Origin: Candidatus Aminicenantes bacterium
GTDB lineage: Bacteria; Acidobacteriota; Aminicenantia; Aminicenantales; UBA4085
Reading direction: 5' to 3'
Length of the DNA stretch: 64,000 nt
Assembly: GCA_963729855.1 (NCBI GenBank)
Contig: CAVSPT010000005.1
Location: 1,271,221 to 1,335,220, forward strand
Position numbers and translations under genes: made by a program. The notes beneath the pieces were generated by a model. It was not told the origin of the DNA. It searched no databases and saw only the letters and a list, made by a program, of their open reading frames with translations. Positions 7,403 to 35,467 of the stretch are shown piece after piece. Positions within the stretch are counted from its first letter, which is position 1, and every line of letters begins with the position of its first letter.

Positions 7403-10400
7403 ATGAACAGGAACACCGCAAGAACCGCCATCACTCGCCGCTGGATCCCGGTCTTCGCCTTCGTCCTGGCGGTCGGGATGACGGCGGCCTTCTCGCTGCC
7501 GCAGGCCCAAACCGCCGCCAAGAAGGCCATGACTGTCGACGATTACGCCAAATGGCGTGATATCGCCAGCCGGGAGATCTCGGGAGACGGCGGGTGGGTC
7601 GCCTACGTCCTCCAGCTGACCAACACCATCCCGGCCGAAGCTAAGCCGGTCCTGCACCTGCTGAATCTGGAGACCGACGTCGAGACGACGGTGAACGACG
7701 CGTCGGATCCGGCCTTCTCTTCGGACTCGAAGTGGATCGCCTATCAGGTGGATCCGGGGGCCGCTCAACGCGCGCGCGCCGCCCGGACCGGCTCCGGTGG
7801 AACGCCCTCGACGCAGCCGGCCGCGCCTCCGGCGACTCCGCCCGTGCCCGCTCCGGCTGAAGCCCCCGGCACGCAACCGGGTCAGGGCCAGACCGGCCGC
7901 GGGGCGGCGCCGGCGGCCATCCCTCCGCGACGCGTCGAACTGCGCAATCTGAAGACCGGAGCGGTGCGCTCCTGGCAGGATATCGGGACCTTCGCCTTCG
8001 CCCCGACCTCCACCCATCTCGTCCTCCGCCGCCGCGGCGCCGAAACGGCCGGTCCCACGGGCCAGAGAGGCGGTGGCGGGCCGCAGGCGCCGGTCGGAGG
8101 CGCCGGGTCTGCGAGCGCGGCCGCCGGGTCGCGCGGGCAAGACGCCATTCTGCTGGATTTACGGACAGGGAGCTTCCAGTTTCTCGGAAGCGTGGGCGAC
8201 TTCGCGTTTAACCGCAGCGGGGAGCTTCTCGCCTTCACCGTGGATGCCGCCGTGAAGGACGGCAACGGAGTCTTTGTCTTCGACACGCGCAACGGGCGCG
8301 TGACACCGCTCGACAACGATGCCGAGATCTACAGCCGGTTGGCCTGGAACGATGACGGCACGGCCATCGCCGCGCTCAAGGGGAGCGAAGTCGAGAAAAT
8401 GCGCGAACGGAACAATGTGCTCGTCGCCTTTCCGGACATCCCCGCGGCGTTGAAGGACGGAGCCGGCGCACCCCTGGCGGTTGTCCTCGACCCTGCCAAA
8501 GCGGACGGCTTTCCAAAGGGCTGGATCGTCAGCGACCGGGCCGCCCTCGCCTGGAGCGAGGACAACAATCGCGTGTTCTTTGGCATCAAGGAGCAGGTGC
8601 CGGCGCCCGAAACGACGCGCAAGTCGACGGACGAAGTGGCCGACGTCGACGTCTGGAACACGGGAGACGAGAGGGTCCAATCCCTCCAAATGGTCCGCGC
8701 CGAACAGGAGCGCAACTTCACCTTCCGCCAGGCCTTCGACCTCTCGGCCAAACGGTTTGTCAGGCTCGCCGACGAGACGATGCGGGAGCTCGACGTCGCC
8801 CCGGACGGCAAGTGGGCCGTGGGATTGGATGCGCGTGCCTATATCCGCAACGAAAAGATCCTGCCGACGGCGGACATCTATCGTGTGAACACGTCCACCG
8901 GCGAGCGGACGCTCGTCGCCAAGGGCCAACTGACCGGCCGGCACACGTTCGGCATCTCCCCCTACGGCCGGCATTTCCTCTTCTGGAAGGACAACACGAT
9001 CCAGGCCTACGACTTCGAAGCAGGAACGACGAAGGCCCTCGGCGCCGGCGAGGTCAGCTTCGTGGACCTCGAGGACGACCACCCGGGGACGAAGCCGTCC
9101 TATGGCATCGCCGGCTACTCCAGCGACGGCAAGGCGGTCATCGCCCAGCACCGCTACGATTTGTGGCTCGTTCCCTTTGACGGCAGCGCGCCGAAGAACC
9201 TGACCCGCGGCGCCGGGGCCAAGAGCGAGATCCGCTTCCGCATCCTCCGCCCCGTGCCGGCGGACCCGACTCTTCCCCGCTCGGTCGGTCCCCGCGGGAC
9301 CATCGATCTCTCGAAGCCGGTCACTTTGTCCGCCTACGGCGAATGGACGAAGAAATCCGGATATTATGAGCTCGCGGGCGGGCAATTAAAGGAACTCATT
9401 TATGAAGACGCTTCGTTCAGCAACCCGGTCCGGGCGATGAAGGCGGACCGCTTTCTCTTCACCCGCCAGACGTTCGTCGAGTTTCCGGACCTCCGCGTTT
9501 CCGGTTCGAGCTTCCGGGAATCCAGGAAAATCTCCGACGCCAACCCGCAACAGAAGGACTATCTGTGGGGCCATCGCCTGCTTTTTGACTACAAGAACAA
9601 GGACGGTGTGAGGCTGCAGGGCATCCTGGCCATCCCGGACGATTACAAGCCGGGCGAAAAGCGGCCCATGCTCGTCATCTTCTACGAGAAGAACTCGCAG
9701 AACATGCACATGTACAGCGCCCCGGCCTATCTTCCCAGCATGGGACGGATGCCGGTCCAGGCGGTCAGCAACGGCTACCTGTCCATGCTGCCGGACATCC
9801 ATTTCCGTACCGGCTCCTCGCACACCGATATGCTGGAATGCGTCGAGGCGGCCACGCGCAAGGTCATCGAGATGGGCTACGCCGATCCGAAGCGCATAGG
9901 CGTCTCCGGACACAGCTACAGCGGAGAAGGCGCGGCCTTTATCGGGACGATGTCCAAGATGTTCGCCGCCGTCGGAATGGGGGCCGGCGTCGTCGACCTG
10001 TACAACGATTTCAGCATGCCCTGGGGCTGGGGATACGGCTACCAGGGCGGGAGCGGCGATACCGCGTTCCAGTACTACCTCTACGATCAGGGCCGCTGGG
10101 GTTTCTCGCCCTGGGACCGGCCCGACCGATACTATTTCGAGTCGGCCCTCACCCATGCCCCGAACGTGAGCGCGCCGTTCCTCATCATGCACGGGACGGC
10201 CGATCCGACCGTCGGCTTCATCAACGGACTCGCTTTCTACAACGCTCTGCGCTACAACGGCAAAAAGGCCGTGCTGCTGGCCTATCCGAACGAGGGCCAT
10301 GGGCTGCGCGGATTGGCGAACCGAAGGGACCTGACCATCCGGTTCTTCGAGTTCTTCGACCATTACCTCAAGGGTGCGCCGGCGCCGAAGTGGCTGACCG

Positions 10401-26122: not shown

Positions 26123-26647
26123 ATGCTTAAGAAAGAGAAAGGCTTCACCCTCATCGAGCTGCTCATCGTTGTGGCGATCATCGGCATCCTGGCCGCTCTG
26201 CTCATCCCCAACGCCATGACCGCTCTGCAGAAGGCGAAAGTCCGCGGCACCCAGAAGGACATCGCCACCATCGCCACGTCCCTGGCCGACTATGTCACGG
26301 ACCACGGCGTGCCGTTCGCGGAGAACGGGAACATCGACGCCACGGGCAAGGCCGCCCTGTCGCCGATGTACATCAAGGTGCTGCCGTTGAACGACCAGTG
26401 GGGCACGCCCTTCAAGGTCTACACGGGCGTCAACTGCAACCAGTACGGGATCACGGGCTCGGCCACGGACGACTTCCTGGTCGCCTCGTACGGGCGCGAC
26501 GCCACCATCGAGTCCTGGACGTACAATGCGGCCACGCCGGAAGCGGGGCTGTACCAGATATCGACCACGGCGGACTTCAACAAAGACCTGGTCAATCTGG
26601 ACGGATCGTTCATTCGCGGACCTCGGGCCGGCGTCTCCGCCACCTGA
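26123..26647 (+). CDS. pilA: Type IV pilin (prepilin with class III signal, N-methylation site)
   Basis: The N-terminus KGFTLIELLIVVAIIGILAA is a classic prepilin-peptidase site. RBS CAGGAGG. Confidence 0.85.
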   Translation: MLKKEKGFTLIELLIVVAIIGILAALLIPNAMTALQKAKVRGTQKDIATIATSLADYVTDHGVPFAENGNIDATGKAALSPMYIKVLPLNDQWGTPFKVYTGVNCNQYGITGSATDDFLVASYGRDATIESWTYNAATPEAGLYQISTTADFNKDLVNLDGSFIRGPRAGVSAT

Positions 26648-28257: not shown

Positions 28258-28779
28258 ATGAAACGCGAAAGCGGATTCACGCTCATTGAGCTGCTCATCG
28301 TTGTGGCGATCATCGGCATCCTGGCCGCTCTGCTCATCCCCAACGCCATGACCGCTCTGCAGAAGGCGAAAGTCCGCGGCACCCAGAAGGACATCGCCAC
28401 CATCGCCACGGCCCTGGCCGGCTATGTGACGGACCACGGCGTGCCGTTCGCCGAGAACGGGAACATCGACGCCACGGCCAAGTCCGCCCTGTCTCCGATG
28501 TACATCAAGGTGCTGCCGTTGAACGACCAGTGGGGCACGCCCTTCAAGGTCTACACGGGGGCCAACTGCAACCAGTACGGGATCACGGGCTCGGCGTCGG
28601 ACGACTTCCTGGTCGCCTCGTACGGGCGCGACGCCACCATCGAGTCCTGGACGTACAATGCGGCCACGCCGGAAGCGGGGCTGTACCAGATATCGACCAC
28701 GGCGGACTTCAACAAAGACCTGGTCAATCTGGACGGATCGTTCATTCGCGGACCTCGGGCCGGCATCTCCGCCACCTGA
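28258..28779 (+). CDS. pilA: Type IV pilin paralog (about 95% identical to 26123..26647)
   Basis: Same prepilin leader/N-terminus (GFTLIELLIVVAIIGILAA). Differs from copy 1 at about 10 residues. RBS GAGGAGG. Confidence 0.85.
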   Translation: MKRESGFTLIELLIVVAIIGILAALLIPNAMTALQKAKVRGTQKDIATIATALAGYVTDHGVPFAENGNIDATAKSALSPMYIKVLPLNDQWGTPFKVYTGANCNQYGITGSASDDFLVASYGRDATIESWTYNAATPEAGLYQISTTADFNKDLVNLDGSFIRGPRAGISAT

Positions 28780-28797
28780 TTCTGAGACGCGGCTGTG

Positions 28798-28832
28798 AAA
28801 GGGCGGCGCCTGAAGCGCCGCCCTTTTTTTTG
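28798..28832 (+). terminator. Rho-independent terminator after pilin gene 2
   Basis: GGGCGGCGC-ctgaa-GCGCCGCCC followed by a T9 run. Confidence 0.8.
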
Positions 28833-28933: not shown

Positions 28934-31270
28934 CTATTTGATCCCGGTGATCTCCCGGATCTTGTCGACGCCCGCCGTCCCGCTGTTGAACAGCCAGGCC
29001 TTGGCGCTCTGCAGAAGACGCTGGAATTGGGACTTATGCAGCTCGAGGCGCTCTTCCGAAAGGGCCAGGAGATGGGGATTGAAGAAGGGGGGCGTCTTGG
29101 TCCCGGCCGTCTTTTTCATCCCGGGGACCTCGCCGGCGGCGAGGATCCGCAAGGCTTCTTCGGAAGATAGCTCGATCAGGGCGGGAGAGAAGGCGTCGCT
29201 GCGAAGAAGGACGATCTGACGGAGGGTGGTGCGGCGGACGACGGCGGCCGGGCCGGCGATCCAATTCGGATCAAGAAGGGCGTGGGCTTCCTTGGCCGCC
29301 TTGTAGCAGAACGGCGCGCCCCGGTCGAGGCGGCAGTCCTCCCGGCGCAGGCACTCGGCATCTTTGCAATCGTCCTTGCGCAGGACGACATTTTCGCATT
29401 TGCCGCCGTCGAAGAGGGGGGCCAGGCGGCCGAAATCCTCGACCGTCCGGGTCGGCAGGAAGACCTTCCGTTCGACCGCGTCGGCCAGGGCGGCCTTGCC
29501 GGCGTAGCGGACGAAGACCACGTCGCTGGCGTGGAAACGGAAACGCGGGTCGCGCAGCAGGCCGAAAAAGAGCCCGGTCTTGTTCGTCCCCGGCGGCCCG
29601 ACCAGGATGAGGCCTTCGCCCCCGGCGTCGACCGACATGCCGCGCACCGGGTGGACCCCGAACGAGCGCTCTCCGACGTCGGCGACCAGGCCGAGAGCCA
29701 GGCTCCTCAGGGGGCCATAGGCGTCGCAGTTGATCAGAAAACCCGTTTTCGTTTCGGTGTTGTAGAGGGCCCGCGCTTCGCGCCCCGGGATCCCGTCGAC
29801 GGCGTAGACGACGCCGTGAGGTTCCAGGCCGGCCTCGAGCTGGGCCGGATACCAATTGTCGACCCAGAAGTCATGGAGATGGGCGACATTCGTCCGCAGC
29901 TGGACGACCACCCCGTTGATGACGGCATTCCATTCGAAGTAATTCTCGGGCGTCAGAAGGCGTTCGATCTCGGCCGCCAGGCCGTCCCGGACGGGGACGG
30001 TCAGGGCCGCGTCGACCGGGACGGCGGCCCGGATGCGGGTGGCATAGTTGCTGAGGGCCACTCTCTGGGACTTGCGGGCCGGCTTGAGAGCGGCCAGGGC
30101 TTTGGCGATCCGGTCGAGGCCCTTTTCCAGGTTCTCCATCGAGGTGGCGTAGGAGAGTCGGATGTAGTCGTCCGCGCCGAAGGAGTCGCCCGGGACCACG
30201 GCGACATTGGCTTCCCTGAGGAGATAATAGGCCAGGCCGTTGGAATTGCGGATCGGCGTCCCGTTGAACTCCATGTCGTGATAGGCCTTGACGCTGGGGA
30301 AGAGGTAGAAAGCGCCCTGCGGCTTGAAGCAGGAGACGCGGGGGATGGCCCCGAGCTTGATCAGGCCGTAGTTGCGCCGGCGCTGAAACTCCTGGACCAT
30401 CCGGGACACCTCGAATTGGGGCCCGTTCAGGGCTTCCTGGGCGGCTCTCTGGGAGATGGAAGCCGCGTTGGACGTCGTGTGGCTTTGGATCTTGGCCATG
30501 CCGGCGATGATGTCGGCCGGGCCCAGGGCGTAGCCGATCCGCCAGCCGGTCATGGAGTACGATTTTGAGGGACCGTTGATGAGGATGGTCTTTTTCTTGA
30601 TGTCCTCGCCCAGGGCGGCGAAGCTGGTGAACTTGAACTGGTCGTAGACGAGCGAGGCATAGATTTCGTCGGCGACGACATAGAGATCCTCCCCGCGGAC
30701 GACGTCGGCCAGGGCCTGCAGCTGTTCGCGGGTGTAGGCCGCGCCCGTCGGATTGGAAGGAGAGTTGAGGATGACGGCCTTGGTCGCCGGCGTGATGTGG
30801 GCCTTGAGGGCCTCGGCGGTGAGGACGAAGCCGTCCTCCTCCCTGGTTTCGACATAAACGGCCTTGCCCTTGGCCAGCTTGACGACGTGAGGATAGGTGA
30901 CCCAATAGGGGACGGGCACGATGATCTCGTCGCCCGCGTCGACGATCGCCTGGAACAGGTGGAAAAGGGAACTCTTGGCTCCGCTGGAGACGATGACTTC
31001 GGCCGGCGTGTAGGCCAGGCCGAAGTCTTCTTTGAAGCGGGCGATGACCGCTTTTTTGAGGGCCGGGGTCCCGTCGTTCTCGGTATACTTGGTGAAATTG
31101 TCGCGGATCGCCTGGATCCCGGCCGACTTGACGTTCTCGGGAGTGGGAAAATCCGGCTCGCCGATGCTCAGGTCGACGACGTCGATCCCTTCCGCCTTCA
31201 TGGCCTTCGCCTTGGCCGCGATGCGCAGCGTGGGCGAGGCCCCGATTTGCTTGACTCGTTCGGAAACCAT
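28934..31270 (-). CDS. Fusion protein: class-I/II (aspartate-type) PLP aminotransferase (aa 1 to ~400) + C-terminal HprK-like P-loop kinase domain with a Cys cluster (aa ~400-778)
   Basis: N-terminal half has aminotransferase motifs, including NGPSKSYSMTGWRIGY (PLP lysine). C-terminal half has HPVRGMSVDAGGEGLILVGPPGTNKTGLFFGLL…HASDVVFV, resembling the HprK kinase core (HG.lvdv.G.GvLitGdSGvGKSE…lvaDD) with a deviant Walker A. A CxnC cluster KCE…DDC…AEC…EDC…PFC follows. Confidence 0.65.
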   Translation of the reverse strand: MVSERVKQIGASPTLRIAAKAKAMKAEGIDVVDLSIGEPDFPTPENVKSAGIQAIRDNFTKYTENDGTPALKKAVIARFKEDFGLAYTPAEVIVSSGAKSSLFHLFQAIVDAGDEIIVPVPYWVTYPHVVKLAKGKAVYVETREEDGFVLTAEALKAHITPATKAVILNSPSNPTGAAYTREQLQALADVVRGEDLYVVADEIYASLVYDQFKFTSFAALGEDIKKKTILINGPSKSYSMTGWRIGYALGPADIIAGMAKIQSHTTSNAASISQRAAQEALNGPQFEVSRMVQEFQRRRNYGLIKLGAIPRVSCFKPQGAFYLFPSVKAYHDMEFNGTPIRNSNGLAYYLLREANVAVVPGDSFGADDYIRLSYATSMENLEKGLDRIAKALAALKPARKSQRVALSNYATRIRAAVPVDAALTVPVRDGLAAEIERLLTPENYFEWNAVINGVVVQLRTNVAHLHDFWVDNWYPAQLEAGLEPHGVVYAVDGIPGREARALYNTETKTGFLINCDAYGPLRSLALGLVADVGERSFGVHPVRGMSVDAGGEGLILVGPPGTNKTGLFFGLLRDPRFRFHASDVVFVRYAGKAALADAVERKVFLPTRTVEDFGRLAPLFDGGKCENVVLRKDDCKDAECLRREDCRLDRGAPFCYKAAKEAHALLDPNWIAGPAAVVRRTTLRQIVLLRSDAFSPALIELSSEEALRILAAGEVPGMKKTAGTKTPPFFNPHLLALSEERLELHKSQFQRLLQSAKAWLFNSGTAGVDKIREITGIK

Positions 31271-31297: not shown

Positions 31298-32704
31298 CTA
31301 TTTCTGGGGCTTCTCTTGCGGGTTGAGCTTGTCCTTGAGGAACTTCTTCAGGTCGGCACCGGTCAGCGCCTGGACCACGTCCGGGACCTGGGCCAGCACC
31401 TCGGCCACCTGGGCCGTGATCTTGTTCGTGCCCAGGCTCTTGTCGCCGCCGCTGACGACGACGATCTTGTCCACTTTGGAGAGCGGTTCGGCCACGGCCT
31501 TGGCCACCTCGGGCAGGACCTTCATGTACATTTCCAGGATGGCGGCGTCGTTGTATTTTTGCATGGAAGCCGCCTTGCGCATCATGGCGTCGGCCTCGGC
31601 CGCGCCCTTTTCCTGGATCCGGGCGGCCTCGGCCTGTCCTTCGAGCTTGACGGCCCCGGCCTTGCCCCGGGCCTCGGCCTGGATGCGGAACTCTTCGGCC
31701 TCGGCCTCGGCCTGGATCTGGTACTTGCGGGCGTCGGAGGGCTTGCGGACGTTGGCCTCCAGCTCCTTCTCCCGGCGCTGGATCTCCAGTTCCTCGATCT
31801 TGATGGACTGCTCCTTCTCCACCAGGCGGACTTTGGATTCCTCGAGCTTGATGGCCTGGCTCAGCCGGTAGCGTTCGAGCTCGTAGGAGAAGTCGGACTG
31901 GGCCTTCTTCTGGTTGACGACCGTCAGCGATTCGGCCTTCTTGGATTCGTTCTCCCATTGGGCCTTTGCGATCAGGGCTTCGGCCTGCAGGCGGGCCACC
32001 TCGGCCTCCTTGCGGGCCTGGGAGGACCTGATGACGGCCTCCTTCTCGCCTTCGGCCTCGGCGATGGCCGCGTCGCGCTTGGCGGCCGAGATGATCGGCT
32101 TGCTCAGGGCGTCCAGATAGCCCTGCGAGTCCGAGAATTCCTTCAGCGAGAATCCCAGCAGGAGGACGCCCATGCGGGAGAATTCGTCCGCGGCCGATTC
32201 GGCCACGCGCTTGTTGAATTCGGCCCGGCCGCGGTAGATTTCCTCGACCGTCATCGTGCCGATGACTTCGCGCATCTTCCCTTCCAGGACGGCGACGGCC
32301 ACGTCGCGCACGCCGTCCTTGCCCGTGCCCAGGAACTGCTCGGCGGCAAGGCGGATGGCGGCCTCGGTCGATTCGATCTTGACCTGGGCCGTGGCGTCGG
32401 CCAGGATGGGCACGCCGCCATGGGTCAGGACCTCGGGCGTCCGGATGCCCAGAGGGATGACCTCCAGGGGCAGAACGTCGACCGTTTCCAGGAAAGGCCG
32501 GACGAACGTCCCGCCGCCGAGCCGGATGCGGTAGCCGATCTTCGTTTTGGAGCCGTCGGCCGCCGTGACCGTCTTTTTGCGCCCGGAGATGACGAGGGCT
32601 TCGTTGGGGCCGACTTTCTTGTACTGTTTGGCGAAGACGAGGATGGCCAGGGCCAGGACGGCGATCGCGGCGCCGGCGACGATGAGGACGGTCACGAGAT
32701 TCAT
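31298..32704 (-). CDS. Flotillin-like SPFH/band-7 protein
   Basis: N-terminal TM. SPFH domain. Long EA-rich coiled coil. RBS GCAGGAGG. Confidence 0.85.
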   Translation of the reverse strand: MNLVTVLIVAGAAIAVLALAILVFAKQYKKVGPNEALVISGRKKTVTAADGSKTKIGYRIRLGGGTFVRPFLETVDVLPLEVIPLGIRTPEVLTHGGVPILADATAQVKIESTEAAIRLAAEQFLGTGKDGVRDVAVAVLEGKMREVIGTMTVEEIYRGRAEFNKRVAESAADEFSRMGVLLLGFSLKEFSDSQGYLDALSKPIISAAKRDAAIAEAEGEKEAVIRSSQARKEAEVARLQAEALIAKAQWENESKKAESLTVVNQKKAQSDFSYELERYRLSQAIKLEESKVRLVEKEQSIKIEELEIQRREKELEANVRKPSDARKYQIQAEAEAEEFRIQAEARGKAGAVKLEGQAEAARIQEKGAAEADAMMRKAASMQKYNDAAILEMYMKVLPEVAKAVAEPLSKVDKIVVVSGGDKSLGTNKITAQVAEVLAQVPDVVQALTGADLKKFLKDKLNPQEKPQK

Positions 32705-32823
32705 GAAGGCCTCCTGCTCAAATGATCGATCTCTCCGGAAAATCCGGTCCTAACTCGTTCAAAGAAAATCAATTATTATCGGCGCGGCGGGCCAATGTCA
32801 AGCCGGGGCCGCGTCCGGCCGGT

Positions 32824-33573: not shown

Positions 33574-34475
33574 GACGTGTTCGTTTCCCCCGCGGGCCTC
33601 GTGTTCCAGCGCTTGTGCACCCAGAACCACCATTCGGGCGCCCGCCGGATCTGATCTTCGATCATCTTAGTGCAGAACTGGGTGATTTTCAACACGTCCT
33701 CCTCCCGGCGCCCGGTGAGCGGAATTTCCGGCGGCGGCAGAATTTTCCAGAGGAGGCGGCGTCCCCGCGGCAGACAAAAAATGGGGACGAGGGGCGCGCC
33801 GGTCAGGATATGGAAGGCGGCCGGACCGGGAGTCGTTGCCGCGCTTCGACCGAAGAAATCGACGAAAACGGCCTCGCTGCGCAGGACGTTCTGGTCGATG
33901 AGAATGGCCATGATGCCGCCGCTTTTCAGGACCCGAAGGATGGGCCGGGCCGCCCCGATCTTGTCGATGGCGCCGCCGCCCATCCGGGTCCGCATGGCCG
34001 TCAGGCGACGATCGACGAGACGGTTGTCGAGATGGCGGACGATGGCGTAGAGCGGCCCGAACTGAAGAAAGGTCGGCGTGATGGTCTCCCAATTGCCGTA
34101 GTGGGCGGTGAAAACAAGGGCGCCCTTGCCGGCGGCCAGCGCCCGTTCGAGGTGTTCCCTCCCCTCGATGTCGATCAGGCGCAGGATGCGGGCCGGTGAA
34201 TAATGAGAGAACTTGATGGTTTCCAGGATCACCCGACCGAAATGGGCGAAGGAGGCCCGGGCGATCGCCCGGCGCGCGTCCGCCGTCTTTTCCCGTCCGA
34301 ACGCGATTTCCAGGTTGTTCCCGGCGATCCGTCGGTGACGGGGGGAGAGCCTGTAGAAGAGACGTCCCAGTAACCGTCCGGAAGCCAGCACGACGGGGCG
34401 GGGCAGAACGATCAGGGCGGCGGAGACCGTCCGGTAAGCCGCGTATCCGGCCCATTCGCCCAGCCGGTCCTTCAC
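33570..34475 (-). CDS. Lipid A biosynthesis lauroyl/myristoyl acyltransferase-like (LpxL/HtrB, LPLAT family)
   Basis: GTG start at 34475 with GAGGAGG RBS; it overlaps the lpxK stop. The Arg/Gly-rich N-terminal ~100 aa of the track ORF are artifact. Confidence 0.75.
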   Translation of the reverse strand: MKDRLGEWAGYAAYRTVSAALIVLPRPVVLASGRLLGRLFYRLSPRHRRIAGNNLEIAFGREKTADARRAIARASFAHFGRVILETIKFSHYSPARILRLIDIEGREHLERALAAGKGALVFTAHYGNWETITPTFLQFGPLYAIVRHLDNRLVDRRLTAMRTRMGGGAIDKIGAARPILRVLKSGGIMAILIDQNVLRSEAVFVDFFGRSAATTPGPAAFHILTGAPLVPIFCLPRGRRLLWKILPPPEIPLTGRREEDVLKITQFCTKMIEDQIRRAPEWWFWVHKRWNTRPAGETNTS

Positions 34476-35467
34476 GTCCGTCCTCCTCGCGGGAAACTCT
34501 CGATGGCGGCCCGGACGCTCTCGCGAAAGCCGGCCGGAAGTTCCAGGCCGATGCGTAAAACGAACGTTTCGAAGCCGGCAATCGACCCGCTGCGGCCGCG
34601 GATCTTGACCGCGTCCTTCTCCGTGGTCAGGAGGACGGGGCAATCCGCCGCGCGCGCGGAGCCGGCCAGCCTGTCCAGGGCCCGCTCCGGGTAATCGAAA
34701 TGGTCGGGAAAAACAGCCCGGGCGGCCGGCCCCGAACCCGCGGCCTCGAGCAGTTCGAAGAATCGCTCCGGACGGGCGATGCCGCAAAAGGCGAAGATGC
34801 GCCGTCCGCGAAGGGTGGCCAAAGGCCGCATCGGGCCCCCTTCGAGGGGGGAGATTCCCTGTTCCCGGACGCGATAGGCGAAAACCTCGGCCCGGCCGGT
34901 TCGGGGCGCCGGGACACCCGGCCGGTCCTTCACCAGGACGATGTCCGCGGCCGCCAGGGCGGCCGGTCCCTCCCGGAGGGGCGTACGGGCGGCCGCGTCG
35001 TAGAGGACGATGTCCAGATCGCGCCGCAGGCGGAGGTGTTGAAAGCCGTCGTCGAGGACGGCGACGTCGAATCCGGCGTCACGGGCCCGCCGGCACGATT
35101 GAAGCCGGTCCCGGCCGATGAAAACGCCGGCGCCCGGGTGACGCCGGGCCGCCAGGAAAGGCTCGTCCCCGCCTTCGCGCCAGGTGCCGGTGATCGTCCG
35201 GCCGTCCGAAAGAACGCCTCCTGTGCGTTCCCAGGCGCTCCTGTACCCCCGGCTGACCAGGGCCGGCCTGCGGCCGATCTCCAGAAGGAAGCCAAGCAGA
35301 TCCATGGCCAGCGGGGTCTTTTCCGATCCGCCCAGGGCCAGATTTCCGACGCTGAGGACGGGCAGGGGCGCACACCGGGGGCGCGGGATTCCAACCCGGC
35401 GAAGAATGCGCTTGAGGCGGCAGACCGGGCGGGAAAAAGCGGAATAGATCCCCAGCAGAAGTTTCAT
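34472..35467 (-). CDS. lpxK: Tetraacyldisaccharide 4'-kinase
   Basis: P-loop VLSVGNLALGGSEKTP, characteristic of LpxK. About 330 aa. Confidence 0.85.
   Translation of the reverse strand: MKLLLGIYSAFSRPVCRLKRILRRVGIPRPRCAPLPVLSVGNLALGGSEKTPLAMDLLGFLLEIGRRPALVSRGYRSAWERTGGVLSDGRTITGTWREGGDEPFLAARRHPGAGVFIGRDRLQSCRRARDAGFDVAVLDDGFQHLRLRRDLDIVLYDAAARTPLREGPAALAAADIVLVKDRPGVPAPRTGRAEVFAYRVREQGISPLEGGPMRPLATLRGRRIFAFCGIARPERFFELLEAAGSGPAARAVFPDHFDYPERALDRLAGSARAADCPVLLTTEKDAVKIRGRSGSIAGFETFVLRIGLELPAGFRESVRAAIESFPRGGRT

Follow-up and report, generated by a model that had tools for sequence, protein, structure and literature searches.

An aspartate-type aminotransferase fused to a remodelled PEPCK-fold module in Candidatus Aminicenantes

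What is the C-terminal half of a protein whose N-terminal half is an aspartate-type aminotransferase, and what might the two halves do together? The question is raised by a gene on the minus strand (28934..31270) of a 64,000-nt stretch of Candidatus Aminicenantes DNA (contig CAVSPT010000005.1, positions 1,271,221 to 1,335,220; hereafter the window). Its open reading frame (ORF) starts with ATG and encodes 778 aa followed by a stop codon. An earlier interpretation made without database searches, the sequence-only reading, had described it as a single ORF joining an aminotransferase to a domain resembling HPr kinase/phosphorylase (HprK/P), possibly a regulatory kinase. Our results show that the fusion exists as described, and that its C-terminal module has the fold of phosphoenolpyruvate carboxykinase (PEPCK) with a heavily altered active site. 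The module is a new family in the PEPCK/HprK superfamily, and the fusion is a new domain architecture. In searches of the literature, neither the fusion nor the module nor a link between flotillin and PEPCK turned out to have been described; the sequence-only reading, too, knew of no described aminotransferase-HprK fusion.

A genuine fusion gene

The aminotransferase domain comprises residues 1–393 (30092..31270, minus strand). PF00155 matches residues 30–388 over model positions 2–361 of 361 (E = 4e-79). The best NCBIfam matches are aspartate transaminases with 432 and 401 bits, which falls short of the 617 and 550 bits required for equivalogs, and the closest PDB match is 6f35_A, a class Ib aspartate aminotransferase (AspAT B; E = 3e-106); the best PDB relatives are AspAT and prephenate aminotransferases. 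Residues 1–393 align end to end with class Ib aspartate and aspartate-prephenate aminotransferases (6F35, 1BJW, 5WMH), with which they share the lysine that binds pyridoxal phosphate (PLP) and the usual class I motifs. However, these known enzymes are stand-alone proteins of ~385–410 aa, and none of them has a C-terminal PEPCK-fold extension. The PLP-lysine motif pointed out in the sequence-only reading, PSKSYSMTGWRIG (30533–30571), follows the Schiff-base pattern S-x-S-K...G-x-R. Its lysine K236 (30563..30565, minus strand), within SKSYSMTGWR, is invariant in 75/75 fusions.

The fusion gene is conserved across hundreds of species of uncultured bacteria. A genome scan with one genome per GTDB species yielded 336 matches. 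Locus-level analyses were made on the best 80 of these matches, nearly all from Candidatus Aminicenantes. At 74 of these 80 reference-species loci, residues 1 to ~774 lie in a single in-frame tblastn alignment, and the other six are interrupted by a contig end. Hence, the frameshift that had been considered near the junction at ~30070 is absent. The junction is formed by a basic linker (residues 394–420; 30011..30091, minus strand) of low model confidence, whose consensus LKTAKKxKRVxLxNxxTR is conserved across the fusions. When the C-terminal half was used as query, 94 proteins were retrieved, many with an N-terminal PF00155 domain. Candidate division CSSED10-310, Zixibacteria and two other lineages share the aminotransferase-module architecture.

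An assembly or sequencing error that joined two separate genes might produce the same picture. In a few records (L001, L105) the gene is indeed called as two, and many of the entries in databases are only fragments. Yet, 74 independent species assemblies with one in-frame alignment across the junction refute this explanation, and the linker sequence is conserved. We therefore rejected the artefact, whose probability is negligible, and consider the fusion gene confirmed. In L001, an 804-kb contig from long reads, two genes (405 + 354 aa) are called on account of a single-base slip at 7700–7800. The slip is located within the aminotransferase coding part, away from the junction, which is continuous; it is probably a sequencing or assembly error, and a split into two real genes was rejected. 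Two Zixibacteria-type loci (L101:460-2748 and L105:845-3309) are also called as two pieces, with the aminotransferase part broken between residues ~100 and ~160. This break may reflect a frameshift that recurs, an insert of divergent sequence or a genuine split.

Fold and family of the C-terminal module

The module proper (residues 421–778; 28937..30010, minus strand) has no genuine match by sequence in Pfam, NCBIfam or the PDB. What the C-terminal half did hit there were AAA+ P-loops, all of them spurious, and a profile search against PDB sequences returned only aminotransferase tails and marginal HprK matches (E = 0.5–1). Even at E <= 10, the window module matched neither PF01293 or the NCBIfam PEPCK models nor PF07475 (Hpr_kinase_C), to which the standalone relatives gave sub-threshold matches only. 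A lead from precomputed hits, 'ScmC' (PF27840), was dropped after it was not reproduced with Pfam and not found in the literature.

Structure comparison was more informative. The AlphaFold2 model of the module, built with 48 homologs, is confident (predicted local distance difference test, pLDDT, 88.8; predicted template modelling score, pTM, 0.87). The top Foldseek matches in the PDB are all PEPCKs, with E = 3e-17 and a query TM score of 0.70 for the ATP-type and E ~1e-11 for the GTP-type. The module is therefore a compact two-domain PEPCK fold, consisting of an N-domain and a P-loop nucleotide domain. Similarity to HprK/P is restricted to the P-loop subdomain (131–150 residues aligned), whereas the PEPCK match spans the whole module, including an N-domain that is PEPCK-like and not of the MurE/F-like type of HprK. 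Thus, the HprK-like character proposed earlier was right at the level of the superfamily, because the P-loop subdomain is common to the PEPCK and HprK families, but the assignment to HprK itself does not hold.

The module family is small: an exhaustive profile search among 1.84 billion cluster representatives yielded no more than 294 members. These include fusions, standalone proteins of ~355–415 aa, forms of ~480–570 aa, one form with an intein in its Walker A motif, and the protein P0230. All members with a source name are labelled either 'hypothetical' or 'aminotransferase'. For a profile-profile comparison, the standalone relatives were included in the family and P0230-type sequences were removed from the PEPCK template side. 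The classical PEPCK profile was derived from plasmid-borne pckA genes and contained 11 classical ATP-PEPCKs; E. coli PckA as query recovered only enterobacterial sequences of 86–93% identity. The module family matched a divergent PEPCK subclass with 97.0% probability (E = 1e-10, 357 columns) and the classical ATP-PEPCKs with 96.7% (E = 3e-10, covering E. coli residues 66–462). The fused clade alone reached 68% (E = 5e-5), and an earlier hhalign comparison of this clade with classical PEPCKs gave only 13–24%, in a partly wrong register. Homology between the module and PEPCK is thus detectable only when profiles are compared with profiles, and requires the standalone relatives.

Two unusual family members were encountered. 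P0305, a 754-aa standalone-type homolog from a Logan contig, contains an intein (PF14890, residues 216–393) exactly between the Lys and Ser of its Walker A motif, APTGTGK|S, as is evident when it is compared with P0265, which has no intein. The sites in which inteins insert are usually critical for function. P0230 (899 aa; L093:8001-10700, also on L094 and L095) carries a module with a degenerate P-loop, N-terminal to a complete divergent PEPCK in one protein. The contigs that encode P0230-type proteins have archaeal-type neighbours (V4R, Robl_LC7 and TFIIE-like).

A remodelled active site

ATP-PEPCK (PckA, PF01293, EC 4.1.1.49) is a protein of ~540 aa. The module, with ~385 aa, lacks the N-terminal ~65 and the C-terminal ~80 residues, including the Arg449 adenine loop. 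It further differs from ATP-PEPCK in that its Mn and substrate residues are replaced, in its insert with four conserved cysteines (Cys4 insert), in the absence of a PF01293 match, and in being always fused to an aminotransferase in the fused clade. We number the module by its 385 positions, such that R129 is R522, R150 is R543, and K171/T172 are K564/T565 of the fusion protein.

The standalone members still resemble the canonical enzyme. They carry NTDYYGQCKSW, IHSIHGA, APTGTGKST, HSDDW, SERxFYxRT and nSRAxLDP, counterparts of PEPCK Tyr207, Lys212/213, His232, Ser250, Gly253, Lys254, Thr255, Asp268/269, Lys288 and Arg333. The fused clade has kept Lys254/Thr255 (K171/T172), Asp269 (D190), the ENV motif, Asp363 and an NTG-type Asn. 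Most other catalytic positions have changed. PEPCK Lys212/213, which is Lys in standalone relatives, has become R129/S130 (R522 at 29705..29707, minus strand), and PEPCK His232, still His in those relatives, has become R150 (R543 at 29642..29644, minus strand). As a consequence, only the Asp is retained of the three Mn2+ ligands Lys213, His232 and Asp269. Furthermore, Ser250 is replaced by P or K, Asp268 by N or S, and Lys288 by P, where the mapping is uncertain. Arg333 is replaced by H in Aminicenantes, although its mapping is uncertain too: it corresponds to H270 in one alignment and to R254 in another. The Arg65 loop maps with low confidence onto the linker, where it falls on A5, flanked by Lys and Arg. 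The adenine-binding segment Arg449 to Thr455 is missing, since the Arg449 loop is deleted and the alignment ends at E. coli residue 462.

The variant P-loop GPPGTNKT (residues 558–565; 29576..29599, minus strand) has the Asn at the usual Walker A Gly that the sequence-only reading had noticed. It departs from the kinase-1a pattern G-x-x-G-x-G-K-[ST], keeping Lys and Thr without the Gly before Lys. In the 75 fusions, the position of PEPCK Gly253 is N, K, R or Q and never Gly, while G, G, T and K of the loop are invariant. The HprK signature His (H-G-x-x-V-D) is likewise absent; the window has VRGMSVD, and this Arg is invariant in the fused clade. The cysteine spacing had also been read correctly. 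The insert from C625 to C655 (29306..29398, minus strand) follows C-x9-C-x4-C-x5-C-x8-C exactly and lies in the region of the PEPCK Arg333 hairpin. Its cysteines C635, C640, C646 and C655 are invariant in the 75 fusions of Aminicenantes, and may form a zinc knuckle near that hairpin.

Of the 385 positions of the module, 63 do not vary at all across these 75 fusions, among them R150-G-M, G/G/T/K of the P-loop, E207-R-K, E233-N and the four cysteines. A few deep-branching fused members have a degenerate P-loop: APNVKKER (P0217), STSGAGRP (P0215) and GPKGMKRGS (Zixibacteria-type). The substituted residues show no drift, and the substitution pattern is that of a repurposed site, neither decaying nor canonical.

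Association with PEPCK and flotillin genes

At 75 Aminicenantes loci the contig continues far enough downstream, and at 38 of them a gene of ~610 aa starts on the same strand 29–291 bp past the fusion. It encodes a divergent ATP-type PEPCK, which matches NF006821 below the cutoff (E = 7e-85) and has every catalytic residue. Adjacency is concentrated in one Aminicenantes clade, where 35 loci have the gene and 3 lack it, against 0/32 in the others. Outside Aminicenantes, a PEPCK of the same divergent subclass lies divergently upstream of flotillin in L100, and the order is flotillin-fusion-ndk-PEPCK in L101 and fusion-ndk in L102.

The divergent subclass itself (L050:11202-13031 and the 37 other Aminicenantes loci, L100:4443-6344 and L101:3192-5048) consists of proteins of ~610–633 aa with a C-terminal extension. 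Its members are below the NCBIfam cutoffs and their core is ~30% identical to E. coli PckA. It looks like a poorly characterised PEPCK lineage.

The link with flotillin is more general. At 73 of 81 loci, which are all those whose contig extends that far, the gene directly upstream of the fusion encodes flotillin and has the same orientation. The same order is found in CSSED10-310 (L099), in L100 and L101, and in the Zixibacteria locus L105. In the window, the FloT-like gene (31298..32704, minus strand; Band_7 match) ends 27 nt before the fusion ATG, which is preceded at 6 nt by an AGGA ribosome-binding site. A sigma-70-like promoter upstream of flotillin (TTGACA-18-AATAAT, 32772..32801, minus strand), recognised only by its 11/12 consensus matches, likely drives the pair. 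Between the fusion and a convergent prepilin-type gene lies a GC-rich 13-bp hairpin (28797..28827, no strand assigned), likewise a consensus match only, which is likely a terminator. By contrast, the neighbourhoods examined of standalone relatives (L096-L098, L103, L104) showed no recurrent partner, neither flotillin nor PEPCK.

A possible role at the oxaloacetate/PEP node

Aspartate aminotransferase makes or consumes oxaloacetate, which is the substrate of PEPCK. The aminotransferase half is predicted to be an active class Ib enzyme that interconverts aspartate + 2-oxoglutarate and oxaloacetate + glutamate. The module has kept Lys-Thr of the P-loop, a single Asp and a large part of the cleft, and its PEPCK metal and substrate residues appear to have been exchanged for an equally conserved set, comprising two Arg, a P-loop Lys/Arg/Asn/Gln, a Pro, a His and the Cys4 insert. 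It would thereby have given up the canonical Mn-dependent PEPCK reaction, and may instead bind an anionic ligand such as oxaloacetate, phosphoenolpyruvate (PEP) or a nucleotide or phosphate. Possibly, it serves as a paralogous docking or regulatory partner through which the aminotransferase is coupled to the organism's own genuine PEPCK, much as catalytically altered paralogs pair with an active enzyme. Unstable oxaloacetate could then be handed over between aspartate and PEP. Flotillin and the fusion would be expressed as a two-gene unit, and hence the assembly may be membrane-associated. In this picture the fusion, its fold, homology and residue pattern and the neighbouring genes are established by the analysis, whereas the ligand, the binding to a partner, the channelling and the direction of flux are inferred.

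We tentatively favour this reading, in which the module has a non-canonical role as a partner or regulator that binds a ligand and links the aminotransferase with PEPCK; we consider it plausible though short of likely. Two findings suggest a non-canonical role. Often there is a complete PEPCK as well, and the module not only lacks most of the metal and substrate residues of PEPCK but has also gained positive charges. That the components act as one functional unit at the aspartate/oxaloacetate/PEP node is suggested by the aminotransferase-module fusion, the module-PEPCK fusion in P0230 and the adjacency of the fusion gene and a PEPCK gene. A comparison with 'prozyme'-type pseudoenzymes, catalytically altered paralogs that partner an active enzyme, is an analogy only. 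Like these, the module is a paralog whose catalytic residues have been exchanged and which is under strong purifying selection, and it is found beside an intact paralog or fused to it (P0230). However, heteromer formation and activation would extend to the module by analogy alone, and the module may still be catalytic.

Several observations weigh against the coupling model. Adjacency to PEPCK follows phylogeny, and the 38 adjacent cases therefore represent about one evolutionary event. There is no PEPCK within 10 kb in the sub-clade of the window (0/32), nor in the 64-kb window itself, and one Zixibacteria locus has no nearby PEPCK. Coupling also leaves unexplained why flotillin is a more universal neighbour than PEPCK. 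The invariant P-loop Lys and Thr would equally fit an active enzyme that uses a nucleoside triphosphate or pyrophosphate (PPi). The full-length AlphaFold2 model has a pTM of 0.51 and predicts no fixed geometry between the domains. Finally, the equivalents of Tyr207, Lys288 and Arg333 are uncertain, because the residue mapping in their vicinity differs between the alignments.

The retained P-loop residues bring up an alternative in which the module is itself catalytic. With an arginine-based remodelled site, perhaps independent of metal or using PPi or another phosphoryl donor, it might convert oxaloacetate to PEP and back, or else decarboxylate it, and a single polypeptide would then interconvert aspartate, oxaloacetate and PEP or pyruvate. 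We regard such a bifunctional enzyme as unlikely. The equivalents of Lys213, His232, Ser250, Lys288 and Arg333, and also the adenine loop with Arg449, have been either exchanged or lost, some fused members (P0217, P0215, Zixibacteria-type) have lost an intact P-loop, and the complete PEPCK next door in many lineages would make a second such activity redundant. The most far-reaching reading, to which we assign a low probability, holds that a PEPCK fold with an arginine-rebuilt Mn site is a new functional class within the PEPCK/HprK superfamily. Together with its fused AspAT, co-transcribed flotillin and the divergent PEPCK it would form a membrane-raft metabolon for aspartate, oxaloacetate and PEP, in which the module is either a metal-independent or PPi-type catalyst or an obligate PEPCK-activating subunit.

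The universality of the flotillin link could also mean that flotillin is the true partner. The module would then recruit the aminotransferase to flotillin membrane microdomains, or be regulated there, for instance beside amino-acid transport or a membrane oxaloacetate decarboxylase, and the PEPCK link would be secondary. Flotillin followed by the fusion on the same strand, with gaps of mostly 18–130 bp, is indeed the sole neighbourhood feature in every lineage with upstream sequence, and it is missing from the standalone relatives. Yet, neither a precedent nor a mechanism is known to us, no membrane segment or domain of the SPFH/NfeD type is predicted in the fusion, and adjacency alone does not prove physical interaction; we consider this explanation quite improbable. 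Even less can be said for a kinase/phosphorylase of the HprK/P type that would regulate the aminotransferase, PEPCK or flotillin through Ser/Thr phosphorylation. Such a regulatory kinase was one of the functions that the sequence-only reading had in mind, and the shared P-loop subdomain gave it a basis. However, PEPCK matches the entire module and HprK/P only that subdomain, the signature His is Arg in all fused members, PF07475 fails to match, and the neighbourhoods examined contain no HPr or phosphotransferase system genes. A simple kinase is thus very improbable.

How much goes to gluconeogenesis, to anaplerosis and to amino-acid metabolism is decided at the oxaloacetate/PEP node, and oxaloacetate is an unstable compound. 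An aminotransferase joined to a PEPCK-fold domain suggests an unrecognised organisation or regulation of this node. The fusion is genetically tied to a true PEPCK, ndk and flotillin, and its hosts (Aminicenantes, Zixibacteria) are abundant uncultured sediment bacteria. The conserved flotillin link is unexpected, and makes the fusion a rare and testable candidate for a metabolic client of a bacterial flotillin. Our analysis also defines the unannotated family of 294 cluster representatives, which forms a natural series from canonical to heavily remodelled active sites. This series can be useful for studies of functional change in PEPCK/HprK-type P-loop proteins or of the origin of pseudoenzymes.

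Other neighbouring genes

Among the other neighbours that the sequence-only reading had listed with flotillin, RNase PH (rph) and LpxK (lpxK) are supported by Pfam and NCBIfam, as flotillin is. In contrast, the ORF that it called lpxL (33667–34581, minus strand) has no Pfam or NCBIfam match at E <= 1e-3. Its positional counterpart in L001 does carry PF03279, and a homolog covering at least half of this ORF is present in only 13 related loci.

Two prepilin-type genes with an N-terminal methylation motif are located on the plus strand of the window at 26123–26647 and 28258–28779, one of them similar to protein G of type II secretion systems (T2SS-G-like). In the window and in L002-L004, which are its closest relatives, the gene at 28258–28779 separates the fusion from a SIS gene; where other loci carry a homolog, it is found downstream of the SIS and acyltransferase genes. 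In L001, where the region is otherwise syntenic, an AbiEi/AbiEii toxin-antitoxin pair (L001:9647-11087) is located just past the SIS gene.

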